Position numbers and translations under genes: made by a program
Assembly: GCF_012295525.1 (NCBI RefSeq)
Contig: NZ_CP051167.1
Coordinates: forward strand, 5,877,299 to 5,941,298
Direction: 5' to 3'
DNA: 64,000 nt
DNA from: Oxynema aestuarii AP17
GTDB lineage: Bacteria > Cyanobacteriota > Cyanobacteriia > Cyanobacteriales > Laspinemataceae
Shown: positions 9,563-58,265 of the stretch, piece after piece
Numbering within the stretch: the first letter of the stretch is position 1
Layout of the letters: the number at the start of each line of letters is the position of its first letter
The notes under the pieces: model-generated
Databases searched by the model: none
What the model saw: the letters and a program-made list of their open reading frames with translations, nothing else
Told to the model about the DNA's origin: nothing

Positions 9563-10779
9563 ATGGGGAGTGGGCGATCGCCCCGGGGCTAAAGGTCGAG
9601 CGCCAATTTATCCGGATTGAAGTCGAGATCGCGCTTAAGATCGTGATTAAATCCTCACAGCCATTAACAACCGTGAAATTCATTCAAAGTTTAGCGATCG
9701 CCCTGAGTCTGGCGATTTCCCTCGGCGGTCCCGTTCCCCAGGTGGGCGCCACTTTACCCGTCGGCGCGATCGCCCAAACCAGCGCCGGAGATTTCTTAGA
9801 AAGCGCGATCGAAAAGCTCGACCGTCGCGCTTACCAGGAGGCGATCGCCGATTTGGACAAGGCGATCGAACTCGATCCCGATTTAGTCTCGGCTTATGCG
9901 GCGCGCGGGATTGCCAAACATCACCTGCGAGATTTTGGCGGGGCGATCGCCGATTTTAGCGAAGTGCTAGAACGCAATCCCAGCGATGCTGAAATGCTGA
10001 CCCTGCGAGGGATTGACTATCTTTATCTGGGGGATTACGACCGGGCGATCGCCGACTTCGACCGGGCGATCGAGAGCGATGGCGAACAGGCAGATATCTA
10101 CATGCTGCGCGCCGACGCGCGATCGCAGAAACTGGCGCTGGAACAGGCCCCGGCGCAACGCTACGATGTCGTCATCGCCGATTACGACCGCGCGATCGCC
10201 CTCGACGGCGACAATCCCCGTTACTATCAGCGACGGGGACAAACTCGGGCTCGCTTGCGACAATCGGAAGCGGCGATCGCCGATTATACCCGGGCGATCG
10301 AGCTGCAACCGACCAACGCCAACCTCTACGTGTTGCGCGGTAACGCTTACGACGATGCAGCCAACTGGCAAAACGCCCTCGAAGACTATACCCGGGCGAT
10401 CGAACTCAATCCCGATTTAGGGGATGCGTATTACAATCGCGGCGTCGCTTACCGTCGCCTCAACCAGTGCGATCGGGCGATCGCCGACTATAGCAAAGCA
10501 CTCCAACTCGACCCCGACGATTTCGGCGCCTACCTCAATCGAGGGGTATGCCACGCCAGCATCAACCAACTCGATCGCGCGATCGCCGATTACAACCGGG
10601 CGATCGAACGAAATCCCAACCTCGGCGAAGCCTATTATAACCGCGCCCTCGCCCAACAGCAGCTCAACCAAATCGAAGCCGCCCGCGCCGACTTTGAAAA
10701 AGCCGCCGATCTTTATCAACAACAAGGACAAGAAACAAAACTGCGCGACGTGCTCAACGCCCTTCGTAACTTGCCCTAG
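9559..10779 (+). CDS. TPR-repeat protein, probably exported
   Basis: About 10 TPR units ([30 protein letters not shown]…, [29 protein letters not shown]…) with a hydrophobic N-terminal segment ([16 protein letters not shown]). Its ATG overlaps the bioF stop (GTGAATGG). Confidence 0.7.
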
Positions 10780-27425: not shown

Positions 27426-29063
27426 TCAATCCACCTCTAACGGACCGATCCCGCGATCGGGGACGTAGTGACTCATCTCTTGCACTAATTCCGTATCTTT
27501 AGACGCCGTTCGCGCCCCTGCTTCCGCCGCCCAATGCTTGAGATCTTCGATTTGGCTGCGCACGATCGCCGCAAGCGGAACTGTTTCCTCAATTGCGCGC
27601 AAGATATCTTCCGTGGAAAAATCCCGGCGTTGTCCGTTCTCCACCCGCGCGAACGCTCGATGCATTCCATCGACGATCGCCTGTTCGATTTCGGCGCCGC
27701 TAAAATTCTTCGCCTGAGTCGCCAGCAAAGCTAAATCGAATTCTCGCAAGCGCGACGGGCGCAATCGTTGCAAGTGTACTTTAAAAATTGCTTGCCGTTC
27801 CTCGAAATTGGGCAAATTAATAAAGAAAATTTCGTCAAATCGACCTTTTCGCAGTAACTCCGCAGGCAAAATTCGCACGTTGTTCGCCGTCGCCACGATA
27901 AACACCGGGGCGCTTTTTTCCTGCATCCAGGTAATCAACGACCCGAACACCCGGCGCGAAGTCCCCGAGTCCCCGTCGGTTCCACTGGAAATATTGCCGA
28001 AGGCTTTGTCGATTTCGTCGATCCAGAGGATACACGGGGCGATCGCCTCTGCAAGCTGGATCATCTGTCTCACTCGCGATTCACTTTCCCCGACAATTCC
28101 GCCGAACAGGCGCCCGCTATCCAACCGCAACAAGGGTAAACGCCATTCGTGGGCGATCGTTTTCGCCGAGAGGGACTTTCCCGTTCCCTGAATTCCCACC
28201 AGCAACACCCCTTTCGGATTCGGTATTCCGTAGCGCCGCGCCTCCTCGGTGAACACGTCCCGACGCATTCGCACCCACTGTTTTAAATTCTCCAATCCCC
28301 CCACGCTTTTGAGGGATTCTCGGGCGGTGAAAAACTCTAAAATCCCCGTCTGGCGGATAGTTTGGCGCTTCTCATCGAGCACCCCTTCGATGTCGGTTTC
28401 GTTGACTTCCTGTTTCGCCGCCAGCGCCAGGGCTAACACGCGCTGAATCCGGGCGCGACTCAATCCCTGACAGGCTTTCACCAGTTGTTCCCGCGCCACG
28501 GGGCTGAGTTTGAGCTTGTCCGGAGAGACGAGACGGGAGAGGAGATAGTCGATTTCCCGTTCGTTGGGGAGGGGAAAGTCGATGACGGTGACTTCTTCGC
28601 GCAGTTCCTCGGGGATGGCGAGCTCGTGACTGGTGAGAATGGCGGTTTTGCGCGATCGCTTTAACTCCCGGGTTAAGTTGCGCAATTCGCGCACTACCGG
28701 GGTATTACTACTGACGTGGGGGTTTTTTAAAATCGGGTGCAAGTCGCGCAGGACGAACAGGGTGTTATCTTGCGGCGGCGCCTTCGCCACCCGGTCTAAC
28801 GCCGCCATCACCGACCCTTTCGCCGATCCGTTGTCACTCCAACCGCGCACTAAATCCCACCACAACAATTGTCGGCGATCGAGGCGTTTTGCCACTTGGG
28901 CGAGCACTTCTTCGACGGGTTCTTCTTCGACGGCGACGATATACAGCAAGGGATAGCGCGCCCGAATCATTAAATCCAGTCGGGAAATCAGGGGCGCGTG
29001 AGGACTGCTTTCACCGCCGAGTACGGCGTCGGAGGGGGTCGGGTTTTGGGGAGTTCGTTGCAT
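27426..29063 (-). CDS. ycf46: Ycf46-like AAA+ ATPase
   Basis: N-terminal RARYPLLYIVAVEEE domain plus a C-terminal AAA module (GVLLVGIQGTGKS Walker A, ILWIDEID Walker B, arginine finger). The track ORF extends to 29126; the likely start is the internal M at ~29063. Confidence 0.6.
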   Translation of the reverse strand: MQRTPQNPTPSDAVLGGESSPHAPLISRLDLMIRARYPLLYIVAVEEEPVEEVLAQVAKRLDRRQLLWWDLVRGWSDNGSAKGSVMAALDRVAKAPPQDNTLFVLRDLHPILKNPHVSSNTPVVRELRNLTRELKRSRKTAILTSHELAIPEELREEVTVIDFPLPNEREIDYLLSRLVSPDKLKLSPVAREQLVKACQGLSRARIQRVLALALAAKQEVNETDIEGVLDEKRQTIRQTGILEFFTARESLKSVGGLENLKQWVRMRRDVFTEEARRYGIPNPKGVLLVGIQGTGKSLSAKTIAHEWRLPLLRLDSGRLFGGIVGESESRVRQMIQLAEAIAPCILWIDEIDKAFGNISSGTDGDSGTSRRVFGSLITWMQEKSAPVFIVATANNVRILPAELLRKGRFDEIFFINLPNFEERQAIFKVHLQRLRPSRLREFDLALLATQAKNFSGAEIEQAIVDGMHRAFARVENGQRRDFSTEDILRAIEETVPLAAIVRSQIEDLKHWAAEAGARTASKDTELVQEMSHYVPDRGIGPLEVD

Positions 29064-42191: not shown

Positions 42192-44912
42192 TCAATGCCA
42201 GTCTCCCGCGAGAATAAATGCCGCCCAATAGTAAGGTAAATGATAGTTTTGGTCGCGATATTGGGGATCGTGTAAAAACGTTAGTTGAGTCTGACGCAAC
42301 GCCTCCGCTTTCGTGAGGTTTGACTGGCGCCAATGGCGGTAAAACTCGCGCATGAATAACGCCGTCGAACCGTCGGCGACCTTCCACAAACTGGCTAAGG
42401 TACTGCGCGCCCCGGCTTGAACCGCGACCCCGGCTAGACCCAAACCGCCGCGACGGTCAGATTTCGCCGTTTCACAGGCACTCAAGACCAGTAAATCGAT
42501 CGGAAAAAGACTACTTTCGATCCGGCGTCGGACGAAGCGATCGAATTGACGGACGTTAATCGGGTCGTCGAAGGCGAGAATAAAGGTCTTTTGAGGATCC
42601 GAACTGAATTCACCGTGAGTGGCAATGTGAACGATCGAAAAATCGGCGTGATTGATTTGTTTTTCAAAAGCATCGCGGGTAAAGTCTTCGTCCAAAAGAA
42701 TCTTGCTGTCGCCGATTTCTGCTTGTACTTCCTGTAATTCTCTCTTTACCGCCGGGAGTTCGTCGAAGTTCGTTCCAAAACTCGGACCGTTTCTAACTCC
42801 TGCCAATAAACCCCGGGGTTCGGACGAAGTTGGGGGCGGATTCGAGTCGAGCTGCGATCGCAAACTAAACGCCAAGCTATATTTTTCAATTAAATATTGG
42901 CCTTGTTCGTCTTGCAACATGGCCATCGGAATAGTTTGTAGCAAACTGTCAGTAACAAACACTAAAGTTCCCGAATCGGGCAAGAGATCGCGAGTGGGTT
43001 GAATTAAAAGTTGGTAGAGTTCGCGAGCGGCTTTAGCGATTTGTTCTTGGTTAATACGAGGATTCAGTGAATACTCTTCTATAAAAAAATTTAAAGATTT
43101 AATTTGTCGTTTGACCGCCTGCCATGGGACTGAGTAATAGTAAAATTGCCGTTCGGAAGCATCGGGAACCTTGACTACGATCGCGATCGAATTGTACTTT
43201 TCTAAGACGATCGCGTACAGAATGGCTGCAGGGTTGTCTTGGAGGTCGGAGTCGGGCTGACTTTCGATCGATAAATCACAACCGAGAAAATTTTCTAATT
43301 CGGCCAACCCGAAGCGATCGATGAGTTGAGCCACGGTTGCGAGTCGATCTTCAAAGGGTTCCCATTTCAAAAGGACAAAAATATAGTCTTCATAAATATC
43401 TCGGACGGTTTCTTGAAAAGAAAACTGTACTTCTCTTTCTAGGGAAAGTAAATCTTGGCGAACTTGCTCTACTTGTTCGACTGCCATTTCGTAAGCGGCG
43501 ATCGCCATGGGAATTTCTCCGAGACTGTAGGCGATATTTCCTAACTGTTGTTGCCAGCGATAGCTCAGTTCTGGAGCGGCGATCGCTTCCGACAGTACCA
43601 CCGCTCGTTCGGTCCATTCTCGGGCGAGATTCAAGTTACTGTGTTTCTGGTAGAACATCCCCATCAGACCGGAGGCATAAATCTCGGTCTGAGTATGGTT
43701 CAATTGGCGAGATGCGCCCAGAGCTAACTCGATTTGGGCGATCGCCTCGCGACTGTATTGGCGATCGCCCCATTGCATTAAAGTATGGGCAAAATTGAGC
43801 CGCGCGTAGATTTCCTCAATCGCCGATAAGCCGGAAAATAATAACGGATCGGCGACTAACTGCTCCACGGTCGGTTCGATTTGAGCGTCGAGCTGGCGCC
43901 ACTCCTGAGTCAGGATCGCATTGTCATCCTGTCCGGCACCTTCCTCCTTCAACCACTCGGCGATCTCGACGAGCAAACTCAAGGCATTGAACAGCGCTTG
44001 AGAGCGGGTGCCGTTGGCACTTTCCCACTCATTCTCCCTTCGTCCTATACGGCGATAACGCTCCAGGGTTCCCTTACCCAATTCGATCGCTTTGATGCGA
44101 TCGCTGGATTGTTCGGTACGGTCGTAAAAACTGCGCTGGCGATTGTATCGCGCTCGTTGGGTGTTCGCCAAGCTCAGTTCGATAATAGCGATCTCCCGAC
44201 CCGAGCTCCACGATCTCGCCAGTTTCAGGGCTTGTTGCAACACCGTTTCCGATGCTTTCAATTTGCCGATCTCGCGCAAGATTTCCCCCAAATTCTGTAA
44301 GGCGAGCTTCTCGATTGCCGTGGAAAGACCGCAGTGCGACTCCGTACAAGCCAACTCGAACCCATCCTCTGTTTGGGCTTCACACAAAAGATCGCCCCCC
44401 TCAATCGGGAGAATCCCAACTAATACTTTACAAGCACGACGATATTGACCTTGGGTTTGGAAAACTACACTTTGGTTGATCTGGCTTCCTACGATCCCGT
44501 CACGATCGCCCAACTGGCGATACAGTCGTTCCGCTTCTTGCCACAACTCTAAGGCTTTTTGGTAGTTGCCCCGGGCAAAGTATTGGTGTCCCTCCCGGGT
44601 TAACAGGCGAGCTTGACGCCGCCATTGGGAGGACGGCGCGATCGTTTGCACCCGAAGCAGTTCCGAAGTGAGCGGGTTCGGGACGAACGGCAATGCGATC
44701 GCGCGTTGAGTCATTCCTTCGCCAAAAATTGTCCAGAGGAACAGGGCGGTTCCTCCCGCGATCGAAATAGAACGTATCCTAGCGCACCCCCGACGCTCCA
44801 GCCAAGGTTCTAGCATCTGAAATTTATAACAACCCCTGAATTGTCTAGAATCAGTCAACAGCGCACTTCTGACCCCTACTTGGCGCGATCGCCTCAGAAG
44901 TGACCGAACCAC
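42192..44912 (-). CDS. TPR-repeat plus CHAT-domain (caspase-like protease) protein
   Basis: 906 aa; TPR units in the N-terminal two thirds; C-terminal CHAT with HIATHGEF (His) and LLVLSACETA (Cys) catalytic dyad motifs. Confidence 0.8.
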   Translation of the reverse strand: MVRSLLRRSRQVGVRSALLTDSRQFRGCYKFQMLEPWLERRGCARIRSISIAGGTALFLWTIFGEGMTQRAIALPFVPNPLTSELLRVQTIAPSSQWRRQARLLTREGHQYFARGNYQKALELWQEAERLYRQLGDRDGIVGSQINQSVVFQTQGQYRRACKVLVGILPIEGGDLLCEAQTEDGFELACTESHCGLSTAIEKLALQNLGEILREIGKLKASETVLQQALKLARSWSSGREIAIIELSLANTQRARYNRQRSFYDRTEQSSDRIKAIELGKGTLERYRRIGRRENEWESANGTRSQALFNALSLLVEIAEWLKEEGAGQDDNAILTQEWRQLDAQIEPTVEQLVADPLLFSGLSAIEEIYARLNFAHTLMQWGDRQYSREAIAQIELALGASRQLNHTQTEIYASGLMGMFYQKHSNLNLAREWTERAVVLSEAIAAPELSYRWQQQLGNIAYSLGEIPMAIAAYEMAVEQVEQVRQDLLSLEREVQFSFQETVRDIYEDYIFVLLKWEPFEDRLATVAQLIDRFGLAELENFLGCDLSIESQPDSDLQDNPAAILYAIVLEKYNSIAIVVKVPDASERQFYYYSVPWQAVKRQIKSLNFFIEEYSLNPRINQEQIAKAARELYQLLIQPTRDLLPDSGTLVFVTDSLLQTIPMAMLQDEQGQYLIEKYSLAFSLRSQLDSNPPPTSSEPRGLLAGVRNGPSFGTNFDELPAVKRELQEVQAEIGDSKILLDEDFTRDAFEKQINHADFSIVHIATHGEFSSDPQKTFILAFDDPINVRQFDRFVRRRIESSLFPIDLLVLSACETAKSDRRGGLGLAGVAVQAGARSTLASLWKVADGSTALFMREFYRHWRQSNLTKAEALRQTQLTFLHDPQYRDQNYHLPYYWAAFILAGDWH

Positions 44913-48308: not shown

Positions 48309-48575
48309 TCAAACTTCCGGACGAGAAGCGGCGAGTTCGGCTTTGGCTTCGGAAACCAGTTCTTTACTGCCTTCATAAGCGACAATACCGCCTTTAACTG
48401 CCGTTTTGGCGATCGCCTTACCTGCTTTTTTGACGGCGGGAATGGCGATCGGAGCGACGACGAGGGCGCCGAGTGTTCCTAATAAAATCCATCCCATCCC
48501 CGGCACCGGACAGCGAAGCCCAAACGGACAAGTTCTCGCTAATTCTTCGCCGAATTCATATTCCCATTTCATCAT
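48309..48575 (-). CDS. Small membrane protein, 88 aa, immediately upstream of and co-oriented with the P-type ATPase
   Basis: ORF with a TM segment WILLGTLGALVVAPIAIPAV and a CPFGLRCPVPGMGW motif; a terminator-like hairpin plus T-run lies downstream on the minus strand (~48240-48275). Confidence 0.4.
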   Translation of the reverse strand: MMKWEYEFGEELARTCPFGLRCPVPGMGWILLGTLGALVVAPIAIPAVKKAGKAIAKTAVKGGIVAYEGSKELVSEAKAELAASRPEV

Positions 48576-48609: not shown

Positions 48610-50886
48610 TTAATTATCCCTACCTTTAAGTAAGGGGCGCAGTCCGTTGACCCCAGCCGCGATCGCCGATCCGTTATGGACCACCGCCGCCGCTAACGGA
48701 TGAAGTCCTACGGTCGTTGCTAACAATAAAGCCGCCACATTTGGAATCACCGAAAGTCGGGTATTTTCACCGATCAATTGCTGGGTTTGTTGGGCTAGGG
48801 CGATCGCCTTGACCAGACTCTCTAAATTGTTTTCCATCAACACCACGTCCGCCGTTTCCCGGGCCACTTCGGATCCTTCGCCAAAGGACACGGAAACATC
48901 CGCATAAGCCAACGCTGCCGAGTCATTAATCCCGTCGCCGACAAACGCCACCGTTTTTCCCGATTCGTGCAGTTCGCGAACCACCGCAGCTTTTTGTTCC
49001 GGGAAGGCGTCGGCGTGAATGTTCTCCGTGGCGATCCCCAATTGTGAGGCAACGGTAACGGCCCGTTGGCGGCAATCTCCGGTGAGAATGTGAATGTCGA
49101 TCCCTTGCGCCTGCAAGGCTTGAATCGTCCCTTTCGTTTCGGGACGTAAGGGGTCGGTATATTCGATCGCCCCGAGTAATTCACCATTGCTGGCGACGTA
49201 AATCGCCGCCGATCCGCGCAAGTCGGGATACACTTCATAGATCCGTTCTAGGTCGATCTGTTCCTTCGCCATGAAGCGATCGCAGCCGACGCGAACCTCT
49301 TCTCCCTCAATTATAGCCCGCACGCCGAGACCGACTTGATAATCCCAGCCATCGCGCTCTAACGCCTCTACCCCGCATTCTTGGGCGTAATTGAGCAGTG
49401 CACAGGCGATCGGATGCGTGAGGCGTCGTTCCGCAGTGGCGGCGAAAGCTAACAACCGTCGTGGGTCGGCACCGTGGATCGTTCTCACTCCAGTGACGAC
49501 GACATCTCCCTGAGTGAGCGTCCCGGTCTTGTCAAACACCACGGCATCTACGTGAGCCAGTTGTTCCAAACTGCGCCCGCTTCGGATGAGGATGCCGCGC
49601 CGTGCTGCCGCACTCATCGACGCCAGTACCGTAGTCGGCACGGAAACGCGAATCCCGGTCATAAAATCGAGGGTCAGAATTGCTGCGGCTCTCGCCATGC
49701 TTCCCGTCACGACTAAGACCCCGGTCGAGAACGCGAAGGCGGGCAAAATCGCTTTGTCGGCCAGTTGGGCCGCGTAGTTTTCCATGCGCGTATCGCCGAC
49801 GGGAGCCTCTCGGACGAGGGTGATACTTTGTCCGGCGCGAGTATCCAGACCGGTTTTCTCGGTCAGGATATACAAATGACCTTCGCGTACCAACGTAGAG
49901 GCATAGACCGGATCGCCGACCGATCGCCGCACGGGAACCGACTCGCCTGTGAGTTTTTGCTGGTCGATCGTGGCTTGACCCCGGAGGATCGATCCGTCGA
50001 TCGGGATTTGTTCGCCGGGATAGACGATGACTGTATCCCCGGGACGGACGCGATCGAGGGCGATTTGCACTTTCATCCCGTCCCGTTCTACCCAGACGAC
50101 GCGATCGAGGGAATCGATCAATTCCGAGGCGTGGCGGGTCGTACTGCGGGCGGTGCGATCGCGGATCAGGTCCCCGAGTTTGTGCAGTAACAAGATCGTC
50201 GAAGGGGTGAGCGGATTGCCCTGTAACGTCGTCAGGGTCAGGGCCATCAAGTCGAGACAGTCGATGTTAATCCGCTTATCTTGCCACAAACTTTCGAGGG
50301 CTTTTTGCGCTACGGGCAGACTTCCGACGGCGATCGTCCCGACCACGGCTAGGGTCGGAATCGGCAACCCCATCGGTCCGGCGAGCAAGGCGAGGAGGCT
50401 GGCGACCAGGGGCAATTTCAGTTCGGACCAGGCGCTTTCCGCCTCCCCGTCGCCGTCAGCTCCCGGCGCCGGGACGATCGCCGTCGCCGCCAAGTCGATC
50501 AAGTTGCCCAAATGCTGCTGCATCTCCTCTACGGAAACGCGATCGCCGTGATAGTGGAGGGCGACGGACATCGCCTGGGGTTTCATGCGGACCTCGGTGA
50601 TGTACTCGTCAGCTTCGAGCAACATTTGCAATCGGTAGACGTAATGAGCGTCGCAACCGAGGCGAGGTAACCGCAACCGCAACCGCCCGGGAATACTGTG
50701 AATCACTTGATGGGGAATCCCCGGGCGCGCAGTCCGTGTTGACGGAGTTTGAACGGGGGAAATCGGTGAGTGCAGCGCTTCGCTATTGTCAAGGGCTTGG
50801 TCGATGGATTTGACCAGTGCGAGTGACCCTTTTTGCCTTGCGACTTTTTGTTGAGACTTGAAATGGACTGCGAGGGCTGCTGCCAT
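48610..50886 (-). CDS. P-type ATPase, P1B-like (heavy-metal-type) architecture but without a canonical CPx motif or CxxC metal-binding domain
   Basis: TGES (KLTGESVPV), DKTGTLT, GDGINDSAAL, TGD motifs. TM segments flank the ATP-binding domain. The position aligned to CPC reads SVPTT. The N-terminus has an HMA-like region without Cys pairs (IHSIPGRLRLRLP). Confidence 0.7.
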   Translation of the reverse strand: MAAALAVHFKSQQKVARQKGSLALVKSIDQALDNSEALHSPISPVQTPSTRTARPGIPHQVIHSIPGRLRLRLPRLGCDAHYVYRLQMLLEADEYITEVRMKPQAMSVALHYHGDRVSVEEMQQHLGNLIDLAATAIVPAPGADGDGEAESAWSELKLPLVASLLALLAGPMGLPIPTLAVVGTIAVGSLPVAQKALESLWQDKRINIDCLDLMALTLTTLQGNPLTPSTILLLHKLGDLIRDRTARSTTRHASELIDSLDRVVWVERDGMKVQIALDRVRPGDTVIVYPGEQIPIDGSILRGQATIDQQKLTGESVPVRRSVGDPVYASTLVREGHLYILTEKTGLDTRAGQSITLVREAPVGDTRMENYAAQLADKAILPAFAFSTGVLVVTGSMARAAAILTLDFMTGIRVSVPTTVLASMSAAARRGILIRSGRSLEQLAHVDAVVFDKTGTLTQGDVVVTGVRTIHGADPRRLLAFAATAERRLTHPIACALLNYAQECGVEALERDGWDYQVGLGVRAIIEGEEVRVGCDRFMAKEQIDLERIYEVYPDLRGSAAIYVASNGELLGAIEYTDPLRPETKGTIQALQAQGIDIHILTGDCRQRAVTVASQLGIATENIHADAFPEQKAAVVRELHESGKTVAFVGDGINDSAALAYADVSVSFGEGSEVARETADVVLMENNLESLVKAIALAQQTQQLIGENTRLSVIPNVAALLLATTVGLHPLAAAVVHNGSAIAAGVNGLRPLLKGRDN

Positions 50887-51379
50887 GATTTCCCCCTAAG
50901 ATTTGTCAATTGAACTTAGGTTAACTGAAGGTTAATTTCTTCTGAATTCAGTTTAATTCTCTGGGCCATAGAAAAGCAATTTTGTAATAGTTTGTAAGCT
51001 TTGATTTTTATTAAAAATCATTTTCGTTAACGGGCGATCGTTCTCGTTTGCCTCCCCTTGAAATTTGGGGTCGCGACGGGGGACTTGACGGCACAAAGCT
51101 AGATTTATCGAGGGTTTTCAGCCAAGCTACCCCTAAATTTCAACCCCGGCAAAGGGCGATCGCCTCTGCGGAAAAATTGCCTCGATACAGGGCTGTGATT
51201 TACTTTTTTGCCAAAAAATAGAGAAGGATTGCAAGTAGAAAACTTTGTCAATAACGCCAAGATTACAGAGATTTTCTTAAAAATTCTATAAGTTTGGGGT
51301 TAGGTTCCAGGGATTTTAACCGAAGCGACTACGATTTACTCGACCCCCCAAACCTTGCCAGTTATCCCCAGTTTTCGGC

Positions 51380-52966
51380 TTAGTGTAATTTGGCGATCGC
51401 CGAGCGCTCTACCAGTAATTCCCCGGTTAAAATATCGCGAACTGTCACTAACAACACCCGCATTTCGTCAATTTCAAATTGAACGGCGATGCGATCGAAA
51501 CCAACTTGTCCGGGGGGGTCGAGATGGGCGATACACACATCGGGATCCCGTCCTTGTAGGGAGCGAAATTGAGTCTGTTTTTGCAGCGCCGTGCTGCTCA
51601 TTTGACCTTCGGGGTCGAAAATCACCTCGGCTGCGGTAATTTCGGCGACTTCGCCAATATCCAGGCGAATTTCCCGTTGTCCTTCCACGGCGACTTGCAA
51701 AACCAACGGGCGATCGCCTGCGGTGGGATAGGAGGTTCCTTGTTCAAAAATCGGCCAATAAGAATAACTTTTACTATACGGTTCCCACAGTCGGATCGCG
51801 TAACTGTGGCGCAAATAGTCTTCAATTTTAACGTGGCGTTCGAGGGCTAAAGCACCATGGGCGACCGCTTCAAACGGCTTGTCTATTTTGACTTTCTGCC
51901 GTCCGAAATAAGAAATTATCAACTGAGCGATCGCGGGAATCAAACAACTGCCGCCGACTAATAAAACCCGTTCGATCTCCCGTTTGCTAATCCCTTTACT
52001 CGTGGCGATCGCTAGCACTTCGTCGATCGCCTCGCGCAAGCGATCGAGTAAACCTTTGCGTTCTAAAAGCTCTTCTAACTGCTGGCGGCTCAATTCAATT
52101 TTATAGGCTTGAAAGGTTTCCTCGTCAAACCAACTTTCTCGAACCATTTCTGTTTGAGAAAGCCGAATTTTCAAACGTTCGGCAATTTCGAGTAACTGCA
52201 ACCACCCCATTTCGCCGACTTGCGATCGATTCGATCCGATCTGACGCAAATAATCTTCCACGATCCAGCGATCGATATCTTCTCCGCCGAGATAGGCGTC
52301 GAACTTGGCGATCGCTTGCGCCCGAACCGTGGACGGGTCGCGATCTCGGGCGCCCCATTCCACGGTGCGAACTAAGCTCAAATCCAGAGTTCCGCCGCCG
52401 AAATCGACGACCAGGACGACGGCGCCGGGTGTTTGCAGGGCATATCCCAACGCCGCCGCCGTAGACTCGTCTACCACTTGCACCGATCCGACGCCGAGAA
52501 CTTCCCCCATCCCTCGTATCCATTCTAAATAGCGGTCGAAGGCGCCGACGGGAACGGTAAAAATGGCGCGGGTCGGGTCGATTCCCAGGCGGTGCAGTTC
52601 TTCCCAGATGGCCAGAAAAAACCGTTGGGCGATCGCCTGCGGGGTGTAGGCGATGCCGTCGATTTGGCGCGGCGGCGGCTGGAAGTCGGCCACCAGAGCG
52701 CGTTTGAAGCTACGAAACAGGCGATCGGGGTCGGCGGCGTCCAAGCGGCGCGATCGCACCGCTTGACCGAAGGTGAGTTGTTGGTTCTCGCCGCAAAAAA
52801 CCAGGGAGGGAATCACGGGAATTTCGTGGCGATCGCCGGAGCCGCGATGGAGGACGAAGCTGCGCGAAAGTCCTTCAAATTTAAGGGTTTCTGGGGTTTT
52901 GCGGTCGGGGCTGAGAATGCTGACGACGGTGTTGCTCGTGCCGAAGTCGATCGCGACTGCTGTCAT
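51380..52966 (-). CDS. Noncanonical short Hsp70-family protein (DnaK-like ATPase, about 528 aa)
   Basis: N-terminal AIDFGTSNT (phosphate-1); LVVDFGGGTLD (phosphate-2); ERLK; LVGGSCLIPAI (adenosine motif). The substrate-binding domain is shorter than in DnaK. Confidence 0.8.
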   Translation of the reverse strand: MTAVAIDFGTSNTVVSILSPDRKTPETLKFEGLSRSFVLHRGSGDRHEIPVIPSLVFCGENQQLTFGQAVRSRRLDAADPDRLFRSFKRALVADFQPPPRQIDGIAYTPQAIAQRFFLAIWEELHRLGIDPTRAIFTVPVGAFDRYLEWIRGMGEVLGVGSVQVVDESTAAALGYALQTPGAVVLVVDFGGGTLDLSLVRTVEWGARDRDPSTVRAQAIAKFDAYLGGEDIDRWIVEDYLRQIGSNRSQVGEMGWLQLLEIAERLKIRLSQTEMVRESWFDEETFQAYKIELSRQQLEELLERKGLLDRLREAIDEVLAIATSKGISKREIERVLLVGGSCLIPAIAQLIISYFGRQKVKIDKPFEAVAHGALALERHVKIEDYLRHSYAIRLWEPYSKSYSYWPIFEQGTSYPTAGDRPLVLQVAVEGQREIRLDIGEVAEITAAEVIFDPEGQMSSTALQKQTQFRSLQGRDPDVCIAHLDPPGQVGFDRIAVQFEIDEMRVLLVTVRDILTGELLVERSAIAKLH

Positions 52967-52984
52967 GACAAATGTCTGGATGGT

Positions 52985-53509
52985 TTAGTCGATCCCTGGC
53001 GGTAAGGTCCGGCTGACTTTCGCCGGACACAAGATGCGATCGCCCTGACGGTACCCGATAAAGCGAATGTAAACCAGTTCCCCCGGTTGGATGCTGTCGG
53101 TATCGGCTTGATGCCATTGAGGATTGTAACCGACTCGTTCCCACGGCGTCCCGATCGCCTCGTATCCCCAGTTTTCTAAAACCGTTGCTAGGGGAGTAAA
53201 TAAAGCGATTAAATTTCGCGCCGGAAGGTCGGGTTTTTCCCGGGCGAATTGACACGCACTCGGGTATTGAGTCAGCAAACTTTGCAATTGCTCGAAGGTG
53301 TCTCGATGCACTTGTGCGGTAATCTGCTGTTGCTGGTCGGACAATTGGGCGCGCAAGCGATCGCATTGTCGTCGCAACTGCTCTACTTCGTCGGAGATCG
53401 CCGTTGGGTCGGGGGCGGCTTCGCTTTCTTTTTTTAACGTAGAAATTAGCGCCAAACTGATAACAAACAGAACCCCACCGAAGGCGAACAAATTCGGATC
53501 TTCAACCAC
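52985..53509 (-). CDS. GrpE-like nucleotide-exchange-factor protein
   Basis: Coiled-coil QLRRQCDRLRAQLSDQQQQ; C-terminal LENWGYEAIGTPWERVGYNPQWHQAD…PGELVYIRFIGYRQGDRILCPAKV resembles the GrpE beta-domain. Confidence 0.6.
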   Translation of the reverse strand: MVEDPNLFAFGGVLFVISLALISTLKKESEAAPDPTAISDEVEQLRRQCDRLRAQLSDQQQQITAQVHRDTFEQLQSLLTQYPSACQFAREKPDLPARNLIALFTPLATVLENWGYEAIGTPWERVGYNPQWHQADTDSIQPGELVYIRFIGYRQGDRILCPAKVSRTLPPGID

Positions 53510-53518
53510 GGAAATCCC

Positions 53519-53746
53519 TTATTCCTCCTGTCGGATCGAGGCGGTGCGATCGCCCGTCAAGTTTTCATACCCCTCTTGGCGATCGTGGTAGTATTCTGGC
53601 AATAACTCCCGCGATTTCACCTGACCGAGTGCCGCTTCTAATCCGGCGGTGATTTCCGTACAACGCGTCCCGGACCCCTCGATCGCGGTTTCGATCGTGT
53701 TGCCGTCTTTCCCAATCCGATATTCAATTTTTTGATATTCTGCCAT
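53519..53746 (-). CDS. DUF2997-like small protein
   Basis: MAEYQKIEYRIGKDGNTIETAIEGSGTRCTEITAGLEAALGQV…PEYY matches my recollection of the DUF2997 pattern (EI.FRIGKDG…G..G..C…LE.ALG). The track ORF starts at 53788. Confidence 0.45.
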   Translation of the reverse strand: MAEYQKIEYRIGKDGNTIETAIEGSGTRCTEITAGLEAALGQVKSRELLPEYYHDRQEGYENLTGDRTASIRQEE

Positions 53747-53833
53747 AGAGAGAACTCCAAAACTTTCTGTCCCCTTCGCCCTCGCCAACGAGGGTAGAGG
53801 CTGTCTCTAGTTTACGGAAGTTCTCAGGATTTT

Positions 53834-54193
53834 TCACGCCCAGAAGCCGCCTTCAGGAAAGAAGGGAACCGCTTTCCCCTGTTTTTTCTCCCGCTTGCGG
53901 TTGTGATTTTCCAGTTCGCCGTGGGCGTGAGTTAACAACTCAAAAACTGATTCCCGCGAGTGGTTGAGCTTGAAAAATTTGAGATCTCCCGCTACCGTTA
54001 ACGGGGCGACAAAGGCAATGGAAGCCACTAAACCTCTTTGAATCGGTTTCCAAGTCAACAGTGAAAACATTTTTAAAACGTCCCTAAAATCTAAAGTGCC
54101 AACCGCCTGCAAGGCGTTCGATCGGTGGGCTGCAGCTTTTTTAAATATTGATTGAAGAATTCTTATGATTAATATTAGGTTATCTCTATGCAC
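53834..54193 (-). CDS. Hypothetical small protein; the true start may be the internal MFSLLTWKPI…
   Basis: ORF only; operon position after the DUF2997-like gene. Confidence 0.3.
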   Translation of the reverse strand: MHRDNLILIIRILQSIFKKAAAHRSNALQAVGTLDFRDVLKMFSLLTWKPIQRGLVASIAFVAPLTVAGDLKFFKLNHSRESVFELLTHAHGELENHNRKREKKQGKAVPFFPEGGFWA

Positions 54194-54309
54194 CCTTCAA
54201 GGATGGCACAAAAATATTCACAATCCTTGACATTATTTTATAATATGAGTCGCACTTTTGGATGCAATTCAAGGTATAATAGAGAGTTGGCTCTCTCAGG
54301 AAGAGCGAT

Positions 54310-55104
54310 TTAGGGGGTTGGGTGAGCCTGGCACGGGATTTCCCAAGGGCGAAGCTGGCGGGTGGTTGGGGTATCGGGAATCGGCCACCCCACACAGGTC
54401 GGCTGACGGTAAATTCGTTGCAGGGTATTGAGGTCCCGTGGGGAAATTCCCGGCGGTCGGGAGACTTGCGAGAAATACATCACGTCGGTCTGGCGATCGC
54501 TGTGTCCCCAGATACCCAAAGCGTGACCGAGTTCGTGGCGGGCGGCAGCTTTGAGATAATCCCCGGTTTGAGTGGGACTCAGGAAAATTTCGCAGTGATG
54601 GGTGAGGATTCGCCTCCCGGAGTCGGGGCGATCGCCAATTTGGTAGCGGGTTTGCGCCGATCGCGCCCGCAACAGTTCCCCGGTGGGCGACAGGCGCACG
54701 GGAGGACGGCGCGACCAGATCGTAATATCGGCGCCTTCGGGGTCGCCAACGAGGGTTAAGGGAAAATAGGCGCTCCATTCGGCCACTACTTCGCCAACCC
54801 CCTCGTTCCAGTCGCGCGATCGCGGCAAGTTCGGCGCCAGGGGTTCGATATAAACGGTAACCGGAAAGCGGGACCAAACGAGATAGCCGACATCGAGGGG
54901 GACGACTTCGGAGAAATAGTCACCGCGATCGCTCTCGTCGTACCATCGAGCGAGGGCTGGGGGCAGGGGATGGGGACGGGCGACGATCGCCCCGGACGCC
55001 TCGGAACCGGGAACGCGCAGGGCCGCCGCCGCGATCGCCCAACTCCAACAAACGAGAGCGACCGCCAGGGCGGCGATCGCCGTTTTCTTCCTCAGCCAAC
55101 TCAT
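54310..55104 (-). CDS. Secreted matrixin-like (M10 metzincin) zinc metalloprotease
   Basis: HELGHALGIWGHSD (HExxHxxGxxH) followed by a Met-turn candidate DVMYF; N-terminal signal/TM MSWLRKKTAIAALAVALV. The track ORF extends to 55134. Confidence 0.7.
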   Translation of the reverse strand: MSWLRKKTAIAALAVALVCWSWAIAAAALRVPGSEASGAIVARPHPLPPALARWYDESDRGDYFSEVVPLDVGYLVWSRFPVTVYIEPLAPNLPRSRDWNEGVGEVVAEWSAYFPLTLVGDPEGADITIWSRRPPVRLSPTGELLRARSAQTRYQIGDRPDSGRRILTHHCEIFLSPTQTGDYLKAAARHELGHALGIWGHSDRQTDVMYFSQVSRPPGISPRDLNTLQRIYRQPTCVGWPIPDTPTTRQLRPWEIPCQAHPTP

Positions 55105-55137
55105 TGCACGAAGCCGCGATCGCCGACTTGGCAAAAC

Positions 55138-55368
55138 CTAGCCCAACCATCCGGCGCTTAACACGATCGTTGTTCCCATAAACACGATCGTCAGCCCCCA
55201 GGTAATCCGGTTGAGGCTCGTTTCCGCACTTTTGGCGCTGGTAAACAGTTGGGCTTGTCCGCCAATCCCACCAATACCGTCGCCTTTGGGGCTGTGCAGC
55301 AACACCAAAATAATTAAGGCGATCGCCGAAACCAGCCAAATAATTTCTGTCAGTTGGGTGATGGTCAT
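55138..55368 (-). CDS. secG: Preprotein translocase subunit SecG
   Basis: 76 aa, two TM segments; LLHSPKGDGIGGIGG glycine-rich loop typical of SecG. Confidence 0.75.
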   Translation of the reverse strand: MTITQLTEIIWLVSAIALIILVLLHSPKGDGIGGIGGQAQLFTSAKSAETSLNRITWGLTIVFMGTTIVLSAGWLG

Positions 55369-55485
55369 AATTGCTACTGCTCAACAATGCTCGTTATCGA
55401 TCTCGATCCGCCAGGGATCCAAACAGCCCGAGCCTCCCAAAACTAGGGAGGCATTACGAGTCACTCGCTCGGTTCGCGATCGCGC

Positions 55486-57084
55486 CTACAGCGAAATCTC
55501 GACGGGTTTGCGACTCGGTTGGAACTTAACCCGACTCGAAACAATCATAGAACGTCCGGTCATCTCTGGCGGTTGCGGCAGACCCAAAATCTCCAAGATC
55601 GTCGGGGCAATATCCGCCAGACAGCCGTCCTCGCGCAAGGCGACTTCCGTTCCGTGTCCCGGAATCTTCAAGCCTTCCCCTTCCACCAAGATAAAGGGAA
55701 CGGGATTGGTCGTGTGGGCGGTCCAGGGATTACCTTGTTCGTCTTGCATATATTCGGCATTGCCGTGATCCGCAATAATAATCGCCGTTCCACCCCGACG
55801 GGAGATCCCCGCCAGTAAGCGTCCGATATTGCGATCGACCGTTTCGATCGCCTGAATTGCCGCCTCAATTTGCCCCGTATGACCGACCATATCCGGGTTG
55901 GCGTAGTTGATCGCCACAAAAGAATAGATCCCGCGATCGATCGCGGCGAGGGCGGTGTCCGTCACCGTATCCGCCGACATTTCCGGCTGTCGGTCGTAGG
56001 TCGCCACCATCGGCGAGGGGATTAATTCGCGGTCTTCCCCTTCAAACGGTTCTTCCAGACCGCCATTAAAGAAATAGGTGACGTGAGCGTACTTCTCGGT
56101 TTCTGCGGTACGGAATTGTCGCAAACCGCGATTGGAAATTACCTCGCCGAGAATCTGACTGAGATTTTGTGGCTCGAAGGCGACCAACACCGGGAGTTCG
56201 CTGTCGTATTGGGTGAAGGTGACGAAGTTCAAGGGCTTAATCTGCTCGCGCTCGAACTCGTCAAAGGCCGGATCCACAAAAACTTGAGTGAGCTGTCTGG
56301 CGCGATCGGGTCGGAAGTTGAAGAAAATGACGCCATCCCCCGCTTCTACCGCCCCGGGGGCGATCCGCGTCGGCATCACAAATTCGTCGGTGATCTCTTC
56401 GGCATAAGATTGCTCTAACAACTCGATCGCCGATCGCCCGTCCCCCGGTCCGTCTTGGGTCATGACTCTATACGCTTTTTCGGCTCGATCCCAACGGCGA
56501 TCGCGGTCCATCGCGTAGTAACGACCGCTCACCGTGACGATTTTACCCACGCCAATACGCGCGATCGCCTCCTCGATTTGCCCGACCGTCTCTATCCCTG
56601 ACGTCGGCGAGGTATCTCGACCGTCCGTAATCGCGTGAATGCAAACGTCTGAAATCTGCTGTGCTTTTGCTAAATCCAGCAATCCGATTAAGTGGCTGAT
56701 ATGGGAATGAACCCCGCCTTCGGAACACAGACCGATTAAATGGAGTTTTCCTCCGCTTGCTTTGACCTCATGACAGACTTTCACGAGAGCGGGATTACTC
56801 AGCAAGGAACCATCTTCGACGGCATCCGTAATCCGCATCAACTCTTGTTTGACAATCCGTCCGGCCCCGATGTTCATGTGGCCGACTTCCGAATTGCCCA
56901 TTTGACCTTCTGGCAGCCCGACAGCTTTCCCCGAGGTTTTGATTAGGGTACTCGGGTAGGTCTCCCAAAGGCTGTCCATCACGGGTGTATTGGCAGCAGC
57001 AATGGCATTTCCTTCAGTTGAGTCACTGTAGCCCCAACCGTCTAAAATGACTAGCACCACCGGAGATATAGGTGCTTGCGCCAT
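55486..57084 (-). CDS. gpmI: 2,3-bisphosphoglycerate-independent phosphoglycerate mutase
   Basis: 532 aa; VLVILDGWG, SEVGHMNIGAGR (catalytic Ser), ADHGN. Confidence 0.9.
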   Translation of the reverse strand: MAQAPISPVVLVILDGWGYSDSTEGNAIAAANTPVMDSLWETYPSTLIKTSGKAVGLPEGQMGNSEVGHMNIGAGRIVKQELMRITDAVEDGSLLSNPALVKVCHEVKASGGKLHLIGLCSEGGVHSHISHLIGLLDLAKAQQISDVCIHAITDGRDTSPTSGIETVGQIEEAIARIGVGKIVTVSGRYYAMDRDRRWDRAEKAYRVMTQDGPGDGRSAIELLEQSYAEEITDEFVMPTRIAPGAVEAGDGVIFFNFRPDRARQLTQVFVDPAFDEFEREQIKPLNFVTFTQYDSELPVLVAFEPQNLSQILGEVISNRGLRQFRTAETEKYAHVTYFFNGGLEEPFEGEDRELIPSPMVATYDRQPEMSADTVTDTALAAIDRGIYSFVAINYANPDMVGHTGQIEAAIQAIETVDRNIGRLLAGISRRGGTAIIIADHGNAEYMQDEQGNPWTAHTTNPVPFILVEGEGLKIPGHGTEVALREDGCLADIAPTILEILGLPQPPEMTGRSMIVSSRVKFQPSRKPVEISL

Positions 57085-58265
57085 ACTCAGTCACCCTTTC
57101 TTTTGTGATTTCTCCGCAATGATAGCATCTCCTCCGGGTATCCTCCAATCGGCTCGGATTCGGCAGCGTCGGTTCCTACAGGTCGGGGAGGTCGGTTGGA
57201 GCGGCGAACTGTACGGTTCGGATCGGGGAGGGGGTTTGGGGTGGCGTCGTTTACACGGCTCGGCTGCTTTTCCCGATCTGGGGTGGACTCGTTCGTGGTT
57301 TTTTCAATTGCTTTAACCCGAAATATGGTGCGTCATCGAACGACGCGCGATCGCCTTCAAAAGTGAACCGATCGCGGCGATTTTTTGGTGCTTGCCGACT
57401 CGATTTCGGGGAAAACAGAATCCATTTTAAGGTTGAAATATCCAGATTAAAGCGTATTCCTTTCGAGGGCGATCGCTCTCTAAAAAATAGATAATTTTCT
57501 TCCGGCTCGATCGCCCGTCATTCTTGGCGTTTGGAAAGGAGGAGATCGGCGATCGCCACGTCGGATCCCACGGTTTTAAAATAGAGTCGTCGTTCGTTGA
57601 ATTCTCACGTGAAATAGCGCACCCGATCGGGTCGTTATTCGGCGATCGCGATCGGGCTAAAGGTAAGGGGCTTAGGGGAGTCGATCTCCCTCCCCTCCCG
57701 GCAATCTCCCGAGCGATCGCCCCCGAGATCGAAACCAACGGCGATCGCCGCCGCAACCGTTGCCAAAAAACACCCCACGATTTTATTTTGACTTGCAAAA
57801 CTATCGAGTTTTAAAAAGCTCGGAAAGTCCGGTTGAAACGGAATTTAAACCCGAACAAACCATGACCTCCGGTGCAAAAAATGAAGGGGCGATCGCCGGG
57901 GAGAGAGAGGGAGGAACCAGGGCGAGGCGATCGGCGCGAAACCTCAGCTAGCCGCCGATCGAAGCCGCCCCTCAACAGGAGCCAAACCCGATCGATTCGA
58001 TCGCAATCCTTACAGATCGGGAACGAGATCGATTCAGATTAATTGACAAAAATGATTAAAACTTCTAATCGATCGAAATTTTCCTCGATTCCTATTGGCG
58101 GGTTCGGTCTGAAATCGCCGCCAAGCGGTCATTTGCCGAGAGAAATCTTATCCGTTGTAACAGACGATCGCCCCCGATTGAAGGGGGAATCTTTAAGAAA
58201 TTGCGATCGCCCGGTACGATTCCGAGATAGGATCGATGTTAATTTTAATTACAGCCTCTTGTCTG

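Follow-up and report, generated by a model that had tools for sequence, protein, structure and literature searches.

A 64,000-nucleotide (nt) stretch of Oxynema aestuarii AP17 (NZ_CP051167.1), called the window here and the source of all coordinates unless a locus is named, carries three closely spaced genes on its minus strand. In the order of transcription, they encode a DUF2997 mini-protein of 75 amino acids (aa) counted from an ATG (53519 to 53746; PF11211), a 174-aa GrpE-like protein with an N-terminal transmembrane (TM) anchor (52985 to 53509; identified by fold, motifs, and family-level Pfam matches), and a lidless 528-aa Hsp70-like ATPase (51380 to 52966; identified by Pfam HSP70, catalytic residues, hhalign, and Foldseek). 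The gaps inside this trio measure 9 and 18 nt. Ahead of it, beyond an AT-rich spacer, lies a metzincin peptidase gene, and the full minus-strand order is gpmI, secG, metzincin peptidase, spacer, DUF2997, GrpE-like, and Hsp70-like. An earlier note on this DNA had read the string from the peptidase to the Hsp70-like gene as one operon with short gaps throughout. All of the open reading frames (ORFs) that it named are present on the minus strand, and the operon reading remains the favored one for the trio; however, the peptidase stop and the DUF2997 start are 563 nt apart, with a GC content of 44%, and the peptidase is part of another block. The trio (51380 to 53746) and the gpmI-secG-peptidase block are two separate units.

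A GrpE-like family profile was used to collect 80 metagenome loci, which together with 7 loci from genomes gave 87 loci with 877 kb of sequence. The neighborhood statistics rest on metagenome contigs, and 65 loci with enough sequence were informative. Of the 65 informative loci, 51 have the Hsp70-like gene as the next gene downstream of the GrpE-like gene, and 53 have a DUF2997 gene as the next one upstream of it. The identical trio order was found in Pantanalinema, a Pseudanabaenaceae metagenome-assembled genome (MAG), Microcoleus, Oscillatoria acuminata, Oscillatoria nigro-viridis PCC 7112, and a JGI genome. A JGI genome that is 99.4% identical to the window over 9 kb has identical gene order. 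The closest relatives are cyanobacterial. As judged from gene order, the DUF2997/GrpE-like/Hsp70-like trio has been conserved as a unit among cyanobacteria. The earlier proposal of a nonhousekeeping Hsp70 accompanied by a GrpE-family partner of its own and a DUF2997 protein was thereby supported, and neither the hidden Markov model (HMM) searches nor the linkage comparison refuted the trio.

Several other components were sought in the same loci. No J-domain was found by tblastn in the 87 loci or in the window, clustering of all neighboring ORFs in the 87 loci gave no recurrent GTPase, and the 87 loci contained no homolog of the P-type ATPase gene that lies beyond the window trio. The GrpE-like protein had no tblastn match in plasmid and phage collections, and a plasmid or phage origin was rejected on this ground. 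PADLOC returned no defense-system match; the AAA+ ATPase described below showed only generic AAA (IetA) similarity and the Hsp70-like protein only a weak candidate match to PDC-M61B (E = 3.7e-6), so the locus was not assigned to a known defense system. The literature on DUF2997, DUF1257, DnaK paralogs, and atypical Hsp70s contained no description of the trio that we could find, and it is apparently undescribed so far. No tie could be made between the trio family and slr0086 ("similar to DnaK"). Nostoc punctiforme has a single annotated GrpE (PMC9239167), which is only suggestive with regard to the taxonomic absence of the trio.

The Hsp70-like protein matches Pfam HSP70 (PF00012) with an E value of 4.8e-34, and this match is limited to the ATPase domain, residues 106 to 372. 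All NCBIfam DnaK/HscA equivalog models scored far below their cutoffs, the best with 114.8 bits versus 648. The relatives of the protein are "Hsp70 family proteins" of 520 to 576 aa from Microcoleus, Leptolyngbya, Oscillatoria, Phormidium, Lyngbya, Tychonema, Oculatella, Xenococcaceae, and others, with identities of at most 63% outside the near-identical genome. It was compared with an Escherichia coli DnaK reference that was checked against PDB 2KHO (residues 1 to 605, 1302 bits). The catalytic residues D7, T10, K88, E167, D188, G190-192, T193, and D195 are intact, are invariant in 37 relatives, and match DnaK D8, T11, K70, E171, D194, G196-198, T199, and D201, giving an ATP hydrolysis site that appears catalytically competent in the alignment. 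The J-contact positions R167 and N170 of DnaK are replaced by Q and D, respectively; further J-contact or domain-coupling residues are also changed (Y145 to G, N147 to F, R151 to L, and E206 to R), and these changed residues are invariant or near-invariant within the family. The interdomain linker EDYLRH, in which D383, Y384, L385, and H387 are invariant, replaces the hydrophobic VLLLD of DnaK.

The hhalign alignment covers DnaK residues 4 to 495, and both HMMER and hhalign run through the beta domain to residue 495, with PPGQVGFDRIAVQFEIDE aligned to the DnaK beta-domain hallmark PPAPRGIPQIEVTFDID (pattern PPxxxGIxxIxVxFxID). The protein ends 12 residues past the DnaK 495 position, at about DnaK 507, where the DnaK lid starts; the alpha-helical lid (the alpha part of the substrate-binding domain, SBD-alpha) and the C-terminal tail are not present. 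The AlphaFold 2 (AF2) model has a predicted local distance difference test (pLDDT) score of 75, with values of 80 to 90 in the ATPase domain, and is all-beta and helix-free after residue 378. Foldseek aligned it over its full length with two-domain DnaK structures, lid-deleted constructs included. The C-terminal and ATPase domains are equally conserved, and 48% of the positions in the linker and strands 1 and 2 are invariant, an unusual invariance that suggests a specific ligand. On alignment and model, the protein is a genuine Hsp70 with two domains and no lid, and it departs from DnaK in several defining features. Another, divergent Hsp70-like gene, with 33% identity to the window protein, is present in three of the collected loci (L066, 7858 to 9423 on the minus strand; L065; and L071), where it sits divergently upstream of the GrpE-like gene and DUF2997 is missing from that position.

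The partner protein appears to be a distant GrpE homolog. The Pfam GrpE model PF01025 matches 23 of 36 relatives at an E value of ≤0.01, with a best E value of 4.6e-9, and the score of the window protein was nowhere near the cutoff of the NCBIfam GrpE equivalog. hhalign aligned the family with residues 99 to 190 of E. coli GrpE (E = 2.7e-5), the sequence of which was checked against 1DKG_A. The motifs NPQWHQA and IGYRQGDRILCPAKV align with DPNVHQA and KGYTLNGRTIRAAMV of E. coli, and the corresponding consensus motifs are NPQxHQ and VGYRxGDRILCPAKV versus DPNVHQA and KGYxLxGRxIRAAMV. In a search of PDB with the family profile, the best match was Geobacillus GrpE (E = 0.029), with a nearly full-length alignment. 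The AF2 model (pLDDT 82) consists of a TM helix at about residues 5 to 26, a long helix at 35 to 91, a helix at 95 to 113, and a beta domain at 116 to 166. The top 12 Foldseek matches in PDB were all GrpE or GrpEL1, with probabilities of 0.96 to 1.00, and the next match had an E value of about 1. The GrpE assignment therefore holds at the level of family profiles and predicted fold.

Unlike soluble GrpE, the family is predicted to share an N-terminal transmembrane helix. The window protein has an N-terminal 19-aa segment with a mean hydropathy of 2.38, and 116 of 121 relatives have one like it; the five exceptions lack the N-terminal segment, and three of them are proteins of only 145 to 154 aa. 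In the family, the flanks of this segment are net acidic before it and net basic after it, a charge pattern that would place the GrpE part in the cytoplasm (N-out, C-in). A word-based search gave 551 relatives, and among the 120 listed, all names were cyanobacterial except for one Vampirovibrionales-labeled MAG. When 1.84 billion cluster representatives were searched exhaustively with the profile, 503 were found at an E value of ≤1e-3, including 93 at ≤1e-30.

About one-third of the GrpE-like relatives, those of 250 to 285 aa (including P0126 to P0132, P0140, and P0210 in our set), carry an XRE/HTH_26 domain inserted between the TM helix and the coiled coil. The HTH_26 matches have E values down to 2e-6, with three over the Pfam cutoff, and these proteins are often annotated as "XRE family transcriptional regulator." The window protein is the short form, without the helix-turn-helix (HTH). 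A more distant sister subfamily consists of soluble proteins with an HTH, a coiled coil, and a GrpE-like domain (P0441, P0455, P0470, P0490, and P0510), and no separate copy of this subfamily was present in the fetched loci. The fusion of a GrpE-type domain to a DNA-binding domain is unusual. Other architectures were also seen. P0373 and P0408 combine a TM helix and the GrpE-like domain with a very long coiled coil rich in Q. In P0393 (1,218 aa) and P0484 (a 469-aa fragment), the domain of the GrpE-like family stands at the C-terminal end of a long N-terminal region that, by eye, resembles mobile-element replication proteins.

The first gene of the trio encodes a clear DUF2997 protein, as the earlier note had held, with 63.9 bits against the PF11211 cutoff of 24.1 (E = 1.2e-17) and coverage of profile positions 1 to 47 of 47. 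The ORF is open back to a TTG at 53788, and a GGAG lies 8 nt ahead of the ATG at 53746. Translation most likely begins at this ATG, giving 75 aa, and not at the TTG, because the orthologs all begin with MAEY and because the GGAG precedes the ATG. The orthologs are strongly conserved, and their consensus is MAEYxxIEYRIGKDGKITETVxNxxGxSCTxTTxxIExALGxVESQxLLPEYY, followed by an acidic tail. As the only other constant component beside the two chaperone-type genes, DUF2997 may be a subunit or cofactor of the same machine. DUF2997 and DUF1257 (Ycf35) are neighbors in the fed7 cluster (PMC4284462).

The peptidase gene (54310 to 55104 from an ATG or to 55134 from a TTG, minus strand) neighbors the trio and lies outside it. 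Its product is a matrixin-like metzincin with a signal-like N terminus, a zinc site HExxHxxGxxH that reads HELGHALGIWGH, and the Met-turn DVMY; the Pfam Peptidase_M10 match is marginal (25.0 bits versus 24) and covers only the C-terminal 54 residues. Its relatives are named "matrixin family metalloprotease" or "peptidase," and it is 95% identical to a protein of Oxynema sp. CENA135. The gene follows secG (55138 to 55368, minus strand; Pfam SecG) at a distance of 33 nt from the ATG or 3 nt from the TTG, and gpmI (55486 to 57084, minus strand) is the first gene of this block. The gpmI-secG-peptidase order is kept in Phormidium sp. ETS-05, Nostoc linckia NIES-25, and Chroococcidiopsis sp. CCMEE 29 (L089, L090, and L091), where the trio is not adjacent and the downstream genes differ each time. 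Homologs of the peptidase, secG, and gpmI were found in none of the 87 loci with a GrpE-like gene, and the adjacency of the peptidase and the trio is confined to this window and the 99.4% identical genome. By these comparisons, the peptidase belongs to the gpmI-secG-peptidase block and not to the trio, and its juxtaposition with the chaperone genes, given its absence from trio loci and its fixation in its own block, appears lineage specific. The fixed position of the peptidase beside secG across distant cyanobacteria may be of interest in its own right.

The 563-nt spacer (53747 to 54309, no strand assigned) is presumed to be the promoter region of the trio. Its GC content of 44% is close to that of the other intergenic gap (41%) and below that of the genes (53% to 63%). 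An Rfam search of positions 50500 to 57500 at an E value of ≤1 gave no structured RNA, and a scan for promoters and terminators gave counts that were not above the shuffled expectation and no clear boundary. The spacer holds the small ORF that the earlier note had counted as a member of the string (orf119, 53834 to 54193, minus strand, 119 codons). This ORF has a GC content of 45% and a third-position GC content (GC3) of 0.48 versus 0.57 to 0.69 for real genes; it has no Pfam or NCBIfam match and no homolog in the 87 loci. The JGI record annotates this ORF as a gene, and it has zero substitutions relative to that 99.4% identical genome. With its intergenic-like composition and lack of family matches and homologs, the small ORF was dropped from the string and is probably not a gene. 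Nearby, an 11-of-12 match to a sigma-70-like promoter occurs at 54217 to 54244 on the plus strand, opposite to the strand of orf119.

Genes encoding a large family of N-terminally tagged proteins recur around the trio in other loci. These proteins share an N-terminal module, M..NQPxxYDAVLGGQxPPPxxxVLGGIEGVKxRL, followed by HEAT/GUN4_N-like helices, and their C-terminal parts vary among WD40, pentapeptide repeats, leucine-rich repeats (LRR), FGE-sulfatase, and no recognized domain. In 10 of 40 loci, the Hsp70-like gene is followed on its own strand by a tag-bearing gene that begins no more than 1.1 kb away, and in four of these the distance is at most 150 nt; the density of tagged genes in these loci would predict about 0.7 of 40. 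The 20-kb contig L072 carries six tagged genes together with the trio and an AAA+/DUF1257 pair. The tagged family, often as tandem paralogs, occupies positions 9704 to 14587 of L001, 9629 to 14595 of L002, and 217 to 18322 of L072, and further tagged genes are present in L029, L057, L022, L011, L024, L086, L059, L074, and L040. No description of the DAVLGG tag motif was found in the literature. In the window, an ORF cut by the edge (1 to 135, minus strand) starts with MRQLLGGEIPPTPLNKGGLEGV, which has a weak likeness to the VLGG...GGxEGV part of the module.

Only the first element of the module, QPxxDAVLGG, also heads a KGK-domain protein and an AAA+ ATPase, the window copy included. The window AAA+ gene (27426 to 29063, minus strand; Pfam AAA, E = 8.6e-32) encodes the N-terminal tag QNPTPSDAVLGG, and its product, a candidate partner or client of the trio, is 76% and 71% identical to the trio-adjacent AAA+ proteins of Oscillatoria acuminata and Halothece, respectively. 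It may correspond to Ycf46, an identification that could not be confirmed and is not relied on here. Of 56 loci, 8 have an AAA+ gene no more than 10 kb from the trio, always accompanied by one or two DUF1257 genes; in most of these loci the AAA+ gene and the trio are convergent, as in Oscillatoria acuminata, and in Halothece they are adjacent and divergent. The tagged proteins (WD40, pentapeptide, LRR, FGE-sulfatase, and AAA+) are put forward tentatively as clients of the Hsp70-like protein, an assignment for which the chances are somewhat short of even.

The trio resembles the canonical DnaK-GrpE-DnaJ system in its identical catalytic residues, its peptide-binding beta domain, and a GrpE-fold partner encoded immediately upstream. 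It differs from that system in the missing lid and tail, the EDYLRH linker in place of VLLLD, and the R167Q and N170D replacements, and also in having no linked J-protein, a TM-anchored GrpE-like protein, an additional DUF2997 protein, and scores far below the equivalog cutoffs. A nonhousekeeping Hsp70 with its own GrpE, in some genomes amid WD40, pentapeptide, and FGE-sulfatase proteins that share an N-terminal module, is also reminiscent of the GAP1-N2 GTPase conflict systems of actinobacteria and firmicutes, the only setting in which the study concerned describes HSP70 with GrpE (Kaur et al. 2020, eLife, PMC7159879). However, those systems occur in other phyla and are centered on a GTPase with FNIII- and DnaJ-fused proteins (PMC7159879), whereas no GTPase or J-domain recurs by the trio, and DUF2997 and the TM anchor are undescribed in that study. 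The domain repertoire of the tagged proteins recalls the effector and sensor sets of NTPase-based conflict systems in multicellular bacteria (PMC7159879).

Among cyanobacterial Hsp70s, DnaK3 at thylakoids (PMC7281324) and the DnaK1-DnaJ3-GrpE set of Nostoc punctiforme (PMC9239167) represent specialized membrane-associated functions comparable to that proposed here. Nostoc punctiforme DnaK1 is encoded in a grpE-dnaK1-dnaJ11 locus and interacts with the single annotated GrpE homolog (PMC9239167). These paralogs work with J-proteins, whereas the exchange factor of the trio appears private and membrane anchored and no J-protein is linked to it. The fed7 cluster, DUF2997-DUF1257(Ycf35)-ferredoxin Fed7 (PMC4284462), contains the same DUF2997 family, and DUF1257 and AAA+ genes lie by the trio in the 8 of 56 loci mentioned above; unlike in that cluster, the DUF2997 gene of the trio is coupled to Hsp70-like and GrpE-like genes and not to a ferredoxin gene. 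The yeast protein Snl1 is also a membrane-anchored exchange factor that would recruit an Hsp70 to the membrane surface, which is a functional analogy only; Snl1 is an endoplasmic reticulum (ER)-anchored, BAG-domain eukaryotic protein (PMC3962485) whose fold is unrelated to that of GrpE.

The reading that we favor, with moderate confidence, is that the trio is a three-gene operon for a dedicated, J-less, membrane-tethered Hsp70 machine. The GrpE-like protein would dimerize via its long helix and be anchored in the plasma membrane or the thylakoid membrane with most of its mass on the cytoplasmic side, in the N-out, C-in orientation predicted from the flanking charges. It would bind the ATPase domain of the Hsp70-like protein, tether it to the membrane, and speed the release of ADP. 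The lidless beta domain would bind short extended peptides with fast on and off kinetics; lid-deleted DnaK likewise binds short peptides with fast kinetics. DUF2997 might be a third subunit that replaces the J-protein as the trigger of hydrolysis or as a client-loading factor, or it might instead be a bridge to DUF1257 and the AAA+ ATPase. A broader proposal, which we regard as speculative and rather unlikely, makes the trio the core of an Hsp70-centered system that recognizes the QPxxYDAVLGG tag and gates the assembly or activation of the polymorphic tagged proteins and the AAA+ ATPase. Built around Hsp70, such a system would parallel the "ternary" systems for conflict or sensing that multicellular bacteria build around MoxR-vWA and GTPases, and DUF2997 and DUF1257 would join the Hsp70 and AAA+ machines as a bi-chaperone.

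Other explanations of the same genes have to be set against the dedicated machine. The trio might encode a general, promiscuous chaperone for membrane-protein quality control or biogenesis at thylakoid or plasma membranes, similar to what has been proposed for DnaK3, without dedicated tagged clients and with the tagged neighbors being coincidental. The spread of the family over many cyanobacterial orders and the membrane-anchored exchange factor fit such a role, most loci, including the window and PCC 7112, have no adjacent tagged gene, and thylakoid-associated DnaK3 offers a precedent (PMC7281324). Against this, the beta domain is unusually invariant, chiefly in the linker and strands 1 and 2, no J-protein was found and the J-contact residues are altered, and tagged genes follow the Hsp70-like gene far more often than expected (10 of 40 versus about 0.7). 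We regard a general chaperone as a doubtful alternative. A regulatory switch is an improbable one. In it, the GrpE-like protein would act mainly as a regulator, tethered to the membrane or bearing an HTH, and the Hsp70-like ATPase would control its state, much as in the repressor-chaperone feedback of HspR and DnaK, so that the trio would be a signaling switch and not a folding machine. This reading draws on the XRE/HTH_26 domain in about one-third of the relatives and on the soluble HTH-bearing sister subfamily. However, the window protein lacks an HTH, an HTH kept at the membrane beside a TM helix would be an unusual way to bind DNA, no operator-like repeat was seen, and the invariant part of the family is the GrpE beta domain and not the HTH.

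The idea of the earlier note, a single operon whose chaperone helps to secrete, activate, or quality-control the metzincin next to it, could appeal to the common strand and the adjacency of the genes in the window and the 99.4% identical genome, as well as to the membrane anchor of the GrpE-like protein and the position of the peptidase after secG. It is very improbable and is largely refuted by the comparative data. None of the 87 trio loci links the peptidase, secG, or gpmI with the trio, the peptidase is fixed with gpmI and secG in three distant cyanobacteria in which the trio is not adjacent, the 563-nt AT-rich spacer divides the two units, and the adjacency is confined to one lineage. As the peptidase is not linked to the trio, a protease-dedicated chaperone has no comparative support.

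Several points weigh against the dedicated, J-less, membrane-tethered machine and its tagged clients. The evidence is computational throughout. As a single protein, the window GrpE-like protein reaches only 17.2 bits against the Pfam PF01025 cutoff of 25.8 (E = 0.004), so that the earlier assignment to GrpE stands for the family and the fold and not for this sequence scored alone. In about 20% of the loci, the GrpE-like gene has no Hsp70-like or DUF2997 gene next to it, and the linkage of the trio is therefore strong but not absolute; in addition, the loci come from related organisms in metagenomes and are nonindependent samples. The J-domain search covered the 87 loci and the window, and a housekeeping J-protein could be encoded elsewhere. 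Confidence in the Hsp70 model is low for the beta domain (pLDDT 45 to 75), and the role of DUF2997 in the machine is a guess. With regard to the clients, the search for tagged genes in the window found only the AAA+ gene, and no tagged repeat-protein gene adjoins the trio there; this AAA+ gene lies 22 kb from the trio with no DUF1257 gene beside it, and no DUF1257 gene was found in the window. The tag contains an Asp, which canonical DnaK disfavors, and a homotypic adaptor or a signal of some other type would explain the tag equally well.

The usual Hsp70 system consists of an Hsp70, a J-protein, and a soluble exchange factor. The dedicated machine proposed here would be a widely conserved cyanobacterial version that departs from this scheme in three ways, namely, the loss of the lid, the lack of a linked J-protein together with altered J-contacts, and a membrane-anchored GrpE homolog that is often fused to an HTH domain, and a small DUF2997 subunit comes on top of these. 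If true, the proposal would provide the first functional context for DUF2997 and, by extension, for its neighbor family DUF1257 (Ycf35), as well as a route by which Hsp70 is recruited to membranes through its exchange factor and a candidate recognition tag common to a large family of cyanobacterial repeat proteins. The annotation of the locus is also corrected, in that the protease goes with secG and not with the chaperone.

Beyond the 3' end of the Hsp70-like gene, past a 493-nt spacer, lies a P-type ATPase gene (48610 to 50886, minus strand). Just downstream of it, an 88-aa ORF (48309 to 48575, minus strand) has a hydrophobic stretch and no family match, and it is called as a gene in a related genome. 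Farther along, 6.5 kb downstream of the trio and past the P-type ATPase, a Crp-family regulator, and hcp, lies a 906-aa ORF (42192 to 44912, minus strand). Its counterpart in the 99.4% identical genome has TPR repeats and a CHAT (caspase-like) domain, and this TPR/CHAT-type ORF is probably unrelated to the trio.

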